In this document: positions 48,560 through 48,757 of the stretch, in pieces
How positions within the stretch are numbered: the stretch's first letter is position 1
How the letters are laid out: each line of letters opens with the position of its first letter
From: Escherichia phage PhiR70_1
Strand: one strand, 5' to 3'
Sequence record: PV340577
DNA: 48,757 nt
The notes under the pieces: model-generated
Seen by the model: the letters and a program-made list of their open reading frames with translations, nothing else
The model's database searches: none
What the model was told of the DNA's origin: nothing
Position numbers and translations under genes: made by a program

Positions 48560-48757
48560 GCGCAAGAAGACAAAAAAATCACCTTGCGCTAATGCTCTGT
48601 TACAGGTCACTAATACCATCTAAGTGGTTGATTCATAGTGACTGGATATGTTGTGTTTTGTAGCATTATGTAGTCTATTTTTTAGACTGAATCAATTATA
48701 AGTCATTGATATTAATTGTTTTTACCGTTTCACATTCAACTTTTTTATACTAACTTG
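48560..48757. other. attR: attR junction: P arm plus att core plus start of B'
   Basis: CTCTGTTACAGGTCACTAATACCATCTAAGT... matches the lambda attP P arm (arm-type Int sites); ends with TTTTTATACTAACTTG, where CTTG matches the B' side of lambda attB as recalled. Confidence 0.7.

Follow-up and report, generated by a model that had tools for sequence, protein, structure and literature searches.

The attachment sites of phage lambda (attP, attL and attR) and the chromosomal attB-lambda, which lies in the gal-bio region between ybhC and ybhB, are the closest described counterparts of the locus considered here, and further attP sequences for comparison come from phages 434, ev099 and mEp332 (PV340541). 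Among these, mEp332 is a plaque-forming phage that was maintained as a lysogen of MG1655 (PMC3442831). Literature searches on ybhC, 434 and attP returned nothing specific. In the present analysis, both ends of a 48,757-nucleotide stretch of Escherichia phage PhiR70_1 (record PV340577; the whole stretch is called the window below) were aligned with lambda attP (NC_001416, 27300-29400, core annotated at 27724-27738), with the corresponding sequences of phage 434, ev099 and mEp332, and with one E. coli attR, one attL and the empty K-12 attB. Halves of att sites were recovered at both edges in the layout of a prophage, with ...O-P'-int on the left side and P-O-B' on the right side. On the basis of these alignments, the order of open reading frames and blast comparison with mEp332 and PhiR68_2, the window (1-48757, taken without strand) very probably represents one complete lambda-like prophage at the classic attB-lambda of E. 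coli, located between ybhC and ybhB/bioA, which was cut out computationally almost exactly at its junctions, from the core/P' boundary of attL through attR and 4 nt into B'.

The right end of the window, whose terminal bases are ...GTTTCACATTCAACTTTTTTATACTAACTTG, carries a 15-bp common core, ACTTTTTTATACTAA, on the plus strand at 48739-48753, with the 7-bp overlap TTTATAC at 48744-48750. This core agrees with the 15-bp lambda core GCTTTTTTATACTAA at 14 of 15 positions, including all seven of the overlap, and its first base is A, versus G in lambda. The exact 14-mer of the core occurs once in the window (0.23 matches are expected at two or fewer mismatches), and the identities to lambda over approximately 200 bp of arm sequence are far beyond chance. 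Two core-type Int sites were aligned on the plus strand, namely C at 48737-48745, which reads CAACTTTTT (lambda: CAGCTTTTT) and has the same variant in mEp332 and in the attR of strain ACN002, and B' at 48749-48757, which reads ACTAACTTG and is identical to K-12 attB. The last four bases of the latter, CTTG, are bacterial; the P' version of the final nine bases would be ACTAAGTTG, with GTTG in their place, and C48754 is the sole base in the window that tells B' from P'. As judged from the alignment, the right end is a complete attR, in which the P arm and the core are followed by the initial 4 nt of B'. The sequence-only reading had proposed that the window edges coincide with a lambda-type att core and that the right end closes with the P arm, the core and bases of B' type; both proposals were borne out, as the last core base is found at position 1, a full core at 48739-48753, and a base fitting B' at 48754. 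The A variant of the core stays with the P arm in attR, and the attL of related genomes retains the bacterial G (CCTGCTTTT; CCTGCTTTTTT), which is expected if strand exchange is confined to TTTATAC.

The same junction bears on the idea that the window is a free phage record, circularly permuted and opened at attP, rather than an integrated prophage. Several GenBank records of this group, such as that of mEp332, do start at att; however, joining the end of the window to its start yields ...TATACTAACTTG followed by AGTTGG, which is not an attP, and the end has the C of B'. Besides, the mEp332 record starts with the bacterial TG of B, implying that it was likewise cut from a lysogen, and a free phage origin of the window is hardly credible.

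A second core-like sequence, GTTTTTTATACTGAAGTTTGGCA, was observed at 46918-46945, approximately 1.8 kb inside attR and upstream of an AraC gene, and resembles attP TTTTTTATACTAAGTTGGCA save for two single-base insertions. Chance in AT-rich DNA could account for it, or it may be a secondary att site or a relic of one. As an att candidate, its core-like part (46918-46931, 2 mismatches) lacks a good C site and shows single-base insertions relative to attP, and it was treated as unproven because one such match is not unlikely by chance.

At the left end, the window opens with AGTTGGCATTATAAAAAAGCATTGCTTATCAATTTGTTGCAACGAACAGGTCACTATCAGTCAAAATAAAATCATTATTTG. Its first base, A1, is the last base of the core and, together with the following GTTG (1-5, plus strand), aligns with the 3' portion of C', a core-type Int site (ACTAAGTTG) that is clipped by the window edge; CCTGCTTTTTTATACTA stands directly before the equivalent of A1 in related genomes. 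The left core copy (save this last base) and the B arm fall outside the window. Positions 2-111 correspond to the P' arm of lambda (27739-27848) with 110 of 110 identical bases (100%), so that the earlier claim of an edge within the core and P' arm holds in full for the arm and comes down to a single base for the core. Within this arm, the plus strand carries the IHF site H' at 27-39, TATCAATTTGTTG, which fits the consensus WATCAANNNNTTR and is identical to lambda 27764-27776, and the arm-type Int sites P'1 (48-57, AGGTCACTAT), P'2 (58-67, CAGTCAAAAT) and P'3 (69-78, AAATCATTAT), all identical to lambda. By alignment, the left end corresponds to the P' side of attL, from which the core is absent save its last base.

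No base in the window separates an attL (B-O-P') from a P-O-P' junction at the left edge; with nothing present to the left of the core, B and P are indistinguishable at this end. Phages of lambda type are known to give tandem dilysogens, and the left edge could then abut the P arm of another prophage instead of ybhC, the window being one prophage within a tandem (poly)lysogen or part of a larger composite. Such an arrangement is very improbable, given that ybhC is found directly outside attL in all seven related or identical-Int loci inspected and that the right end bears the B' base.

The evidence on the host flanks of the proposed single prophage comes from relatives, the best matches among 5,426 complete E. 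coli genomes being 97-99% identical to the window and none identical; these genomes were compared with the two ends, a 24-kb internal block and the IS4 junction. The right end (48300-48757) was present in 177 genomes at 80% coverage or more, with the top matches listed reaching 99.6% over 458 bp. In genomes sharing this right end, the sequence runs on into AGCGAAACGGGAAGG..., followed by ybhB-bioA-bioBFCD; in strain ACN002, for example, the right end continues as ...TATACTAACTTGAGCGAAACGGGAAGGTAAAAAG (from B' onward AGCGAAACGGG...), again followed by ybhB, bioA and bioBFCD. The left end, matched at 99.1% over 1500 bp, is preceded by ...GAAGCCTGCTTTTTTATACTA, immediately before AGTTGG, and by ybhC-ybhJ. 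Int proteins identical to that of the window are very common; in each of the six contigs displayed, ybhC (pectinesterase-family) and ybhJ lie beside int. In uninfected K-12 MG1655, the ybhC-side and ybhB-side flanks are contiguous as an empty attB. A 142-nt probe made up of P arm, core and B' was covered over at least 80% of its length in 1917 of the 5426 complete genomes (~35%), and most other genomes matched its core-plus-B' part only, the pattern of an empty site. The integration at a lambda-type attB inferred in the sequence-only reading is thus in line with the prophage configuration of the ends and with ybhC and ybhB-bioA as the flanks in relatives. If the window is indeed such a prophage, its left flank should read ...AATCCGTTGAAGCCTGCTTTTTTATACTA with ybhC, and its right flank AGCGAAACGGGAAGGTAAAAAGAC... 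with ybhB.

The P arm occupies 48541-48738, and its identity to lambda is unevenly distributed. From 48541 to 48659, a section that includes tI, P1, H1, P2 and X1, 111 of 119 bases are identical (93%), whereas from 48660 to 48739, between X1.5 and C, the figure is 56 of 80 (70%). The divergence noted earlier at about 48650-48740 is real (66/90 identical over 48650-48739), but it had been assigned to the distal part of the arm and in fact occupies the core-proximal half; the distal block, P1-H1-P2-X1, hardly differs from lambda. To the left of 48541, similarity to lambda ceases (25/63), and the sequence is identical or nearly identical to ev099, mEp332 and 434. Differences from lambda cluster in X1.5, in the F-H2 and H2-C spacers and at degenerate positions. 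No indel separates the two sequences from tI to the core, indicating that spacing and helical phasing are preserved. The tI terminator/sib hairpin (48551-48592, minus strand, the int-sense strand) has two extra A in its loop compared with lambda and folds at -32 kcal/mol (z = -3.4) into a 12-pair stem followed by a U run; a generic terminator scan did not call tI, because the loop is longer than 8 nt, and it was recovered by RNA folding.

The predicted protein-binding sites follow the same pattern. The arm-type Int site P1 (AGGTCACTAA, 48604-48613, plus strand) is identical to lambda and lies within the annotated 'int 1' footprint of that phage, and P2 (CAGTCACTAT, 48635-48644, minus strand) is an exact consensus match, the same as in lambda; all five Int arm decamers are those of lambda, and alignment reveals no indels from P1 to the core or from the core to P'3. 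A regular-expression scan of the att ends for the IHF consensus WATCAANNNNTTR returned three sites only, H1, H2 and H'. Of these, H1 (AATCAACCACTTA, 48621-48633, minus strand) retains the consensus with a single change in the NNNN positions, and H2 (TATCAATGACTTA, 48699-48711, minus strand) also retains it, all 3 of its changes relative to lambda falling in NNNN. On the plus strand, the Xis sites aligned to lambda span 48646-48682, with X1 at 48646-48659 (14/14), X1.5 with 3 changes, and X2 at 48667-48682 (15/16). The Fis site F overlaps X2 at 48673-48687 (plus strand); it reads GTCTATTTTTTAGAC, fits GNNYRNNWNNYRNNC and is homologous to lambda 27658-27672, GTCTGTTTTTTATGC. A loss of the Fis site had been considered on the basis of 6 changes in 15 positions over lambda 27667-27681, and was rejected when a consensus scan placed F at 27658-27672, where it is conserved. 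X1, X2 and the overlapping Fis site are thus predicted to be present in the P arm.

These comparisons indicate that the attP is a natural variant of that of lambda, with a P arm of the mEp332/434 type and with the predicted protein-binding sites and spacings kept. As mEp332 carries the same P arm and is viable, the variant appears to be functional in nature. Its C site, CAACTTTTT, fits the consensus CAACTTNNT better than CAGCTTTTT of lambda does, its Fis site is more symmetric than that of lambda (GTCTA-TTTTT-TAGAC), and its spacers from F through H2 to C are rewritten. A measurable change in the affinity of Int for C, or in the dependence of integration and excision on Fis or IHF, relative to lambda is conceivable but rather unlikely; if true, the variant, which occurs in at least ~177 complete E. 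coli genomes sharing the right end, would represent an allele of the lambda recombination site that has been tuned in nature.

The genes for the recombination proteins lie next to the P' arm, both on the minus strand. The int gene (75-1145) encodes a lambda-type tyrosine integrase of 356 aa, of which 352 are identical to lambda Int (99%), and xis (1123-1341) encodes a 72-aa excisionase with 69 residues (96%) identical to lambda Xis. All catalytic residues of Int (R212, K235, H308, R311, H333 and Y342) are present. Residues N99, S282, G283, R287 and E319 set lambda versus HK022 core specificity, and all five are the same as in lambda. Given this conservation, we infer that the established lambda pathway applies, in which Int would recombine attP with attB by bridging arm-type (P1, P2 and P'1-3) and core-type sites (C, C', B and B'), with IHF bending the DNA at H1, H2 and H' and strands being exchanged across the 7-bp overlap TTTATAC. 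Excision, by recombination of attL with attR, would additionally involve Xis at X1, X1.5 and X2 and Fis at F; the expected products are an attP reading ...TTCAACTTTTTTATACTAAGTTGGCATT (in virion DNA ...TATACTAAGTTGGCATT) and a restored attB. Since attP would be split on integration, tI/sib, which lies beyond the P arm, would be parted from int, as in lambda.

Between the two att ends, the canonical gene order of a lambda prophage was found by open reading frames and blast to annotated mEp332 and PhiR68_2. It runs from int, xis, exo, bet, gam, the immunity region (cI-cro), O, P, ren, the nin region and Q to a porin gene, S, R, Rz, Nu1, A, W, B, C, D, E, FI ... H, M, L, K, I, J, lom, stf, a cargo region and attR. 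The suggestion that a whole prophage had been captured is consistent with this order from end to end, and needs to be qualified by an insertion of IS4 and an apparent frameshift in H. The IS4 element (28851-30276, 1426 bp) lies between E and FI and encodes a 442-aa transposase (Pfam Nterm_IS4 and DDE_Tnp_1). It is complete, with terminal inverted repeats TAATGCC.. and a 12-bp target duplication, GGCCCTTCGGGG, and its target is a GC-rich intergenic hairpin between the capsid gene E and FI. The tape-measure gene, H (33651-36211), has lost 1 nt near 33904 (GGCGGGC to GGGGGC, versus mEp332 and PhiR68_2); the deletion leads to a stop after ~90 codons, and may be either a real tail defect or a sequencing error.

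It is possible, with a likelihood somewhat below even, that the att ends are genuine and the element is nevertheless a decaying cryptic prophage, which may excise without giving infectious particles; this depends on whether the frameshift in H is real, and would be compatible with the main reading of the window as a complete prophage at attB-lambda. The truncated H, the IS4 in the late operon, the IS2 and IS3 fragments in the right-arm cargo and the absence of a tail-fibre assembly open reading frame after stf are all in favor of decay. On the other hand, a single-base deletion in H could arise from a sequencing or assembly error, the IS4 sits in an intergenic hairpin and not in coding sequence (FI is annotated as intact in another genome with the same insertion), IS fragments are also found in the viable phage mEp332, and no damage is seen in int, xis or any att site.

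Several additional features of the proposed prophage were observed. An identical IS4 insertion point was found in five complete E. coli genomes, and the one copy inspected, in 118UI, belongs to another prophage, adjacent to sitABCD. This suggests a sequence-specific hot spot for IS4 in lambdoid late operons. The nin region contains a DLP12-like moron block (11149-14498) with a ybcK-like large serine recombinase of 508 aa (domains Resolvase, Recombinase and Zn_ribbon_recom) and two further genes, one ybcL-like of the PEBP family and one ybcM-like of the AraC family; the serine enzyme is a second recombinase in a phage that integrates by a tyrosine Int. The immunity region (5239-8481) differs from both lambda-like relatives and encodes, on the minus strand, an MqsA-antitoxin-like HTH protein (5739-6350) and a cI-type repressor of the S24-peptidase kind (6881-7609); a YdaT-family protein (7936-8481) takes the place annotated as cII in relatives. 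Between Q and the lysis cassette, an OmpC/NmpC-type porin gene (16775-17857, minus strand), also present in related phages, is lysogenic-conversion cargo.

Toward attR, the 830-aa side tail fibre is of the S74 peptidase/intramolecular chaperone type, and within 45313-46988 no open reading frame of at least 60 aa was found for ~1 kb after its gene. Only a truncated tail-fibre assembly gene is annotated in the equivalent region of relatives, and 45313-46988 looks like a decayed region. The cargo that follows comprises a YdeO/AppY-like AraC regulator (46989-47741), an IS2 TnpB fragment (47783-48148, minus strand), an N-terminal fragment of an IS3-family OrfA (48299-48446) and a decayed ORF remnant (48446-48529, minus strand), and the block as a whole (46989-48529) is common to the viable phages mEp332 and ev099.

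The site is of a textbook kind, at a known locus and very common; there is nothing novel in the finding and its interest is low, and no new biological question is opened, because lambda-type prophages at attB occur in about one third of complete E. coli genomes. Its value is that of an annotation anchor, which fixes the boundaries, orientation and integration site of an element with intact int, xis and att sites, and it illustrates on a small scale how selection acts on the protein-binding sites of a classic recombination site but not on its spacers.

Compared with the known systems, the window shares with lambda the overlap, 14 of 15 core positions, an identical P' arm, the chromosomal site (attB-lambda) and the set of arm-type, IHF, Xis and Fis sites, whose spacing is identical, with tI/sib lying beyond the P arm in both. 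It differs from lambda in the A at the first core position, in the C site CAACTTTTT, in the 70% identity over 48660-48739, in the two extra A of the tI loop and in the sequence left of 48541, which is unrelated to the b region of lambda. The closest P arm is that of mEp332 (98.2% identical, including CAACTTTTTT), which also has the same IS-fragment/AraC cargo by attR (45364-48741, 98.9%) and the same int-xis end (99.1%); however, mEp332, a lambda-immunity lambdoid phage, differs in the immunity and early regions, has no IS4 and has an intact H gene. The attP sites of 434 and ev099 have the same core and type of integration specificity and share the non-lambda sequence that lies upstream of tI, with P arm identities of 89.6% and 92.6%, respectively, whereas both retain the G of lambda as first core base (CAGCTTTT) and differ again in their F-C spacers (65/80).
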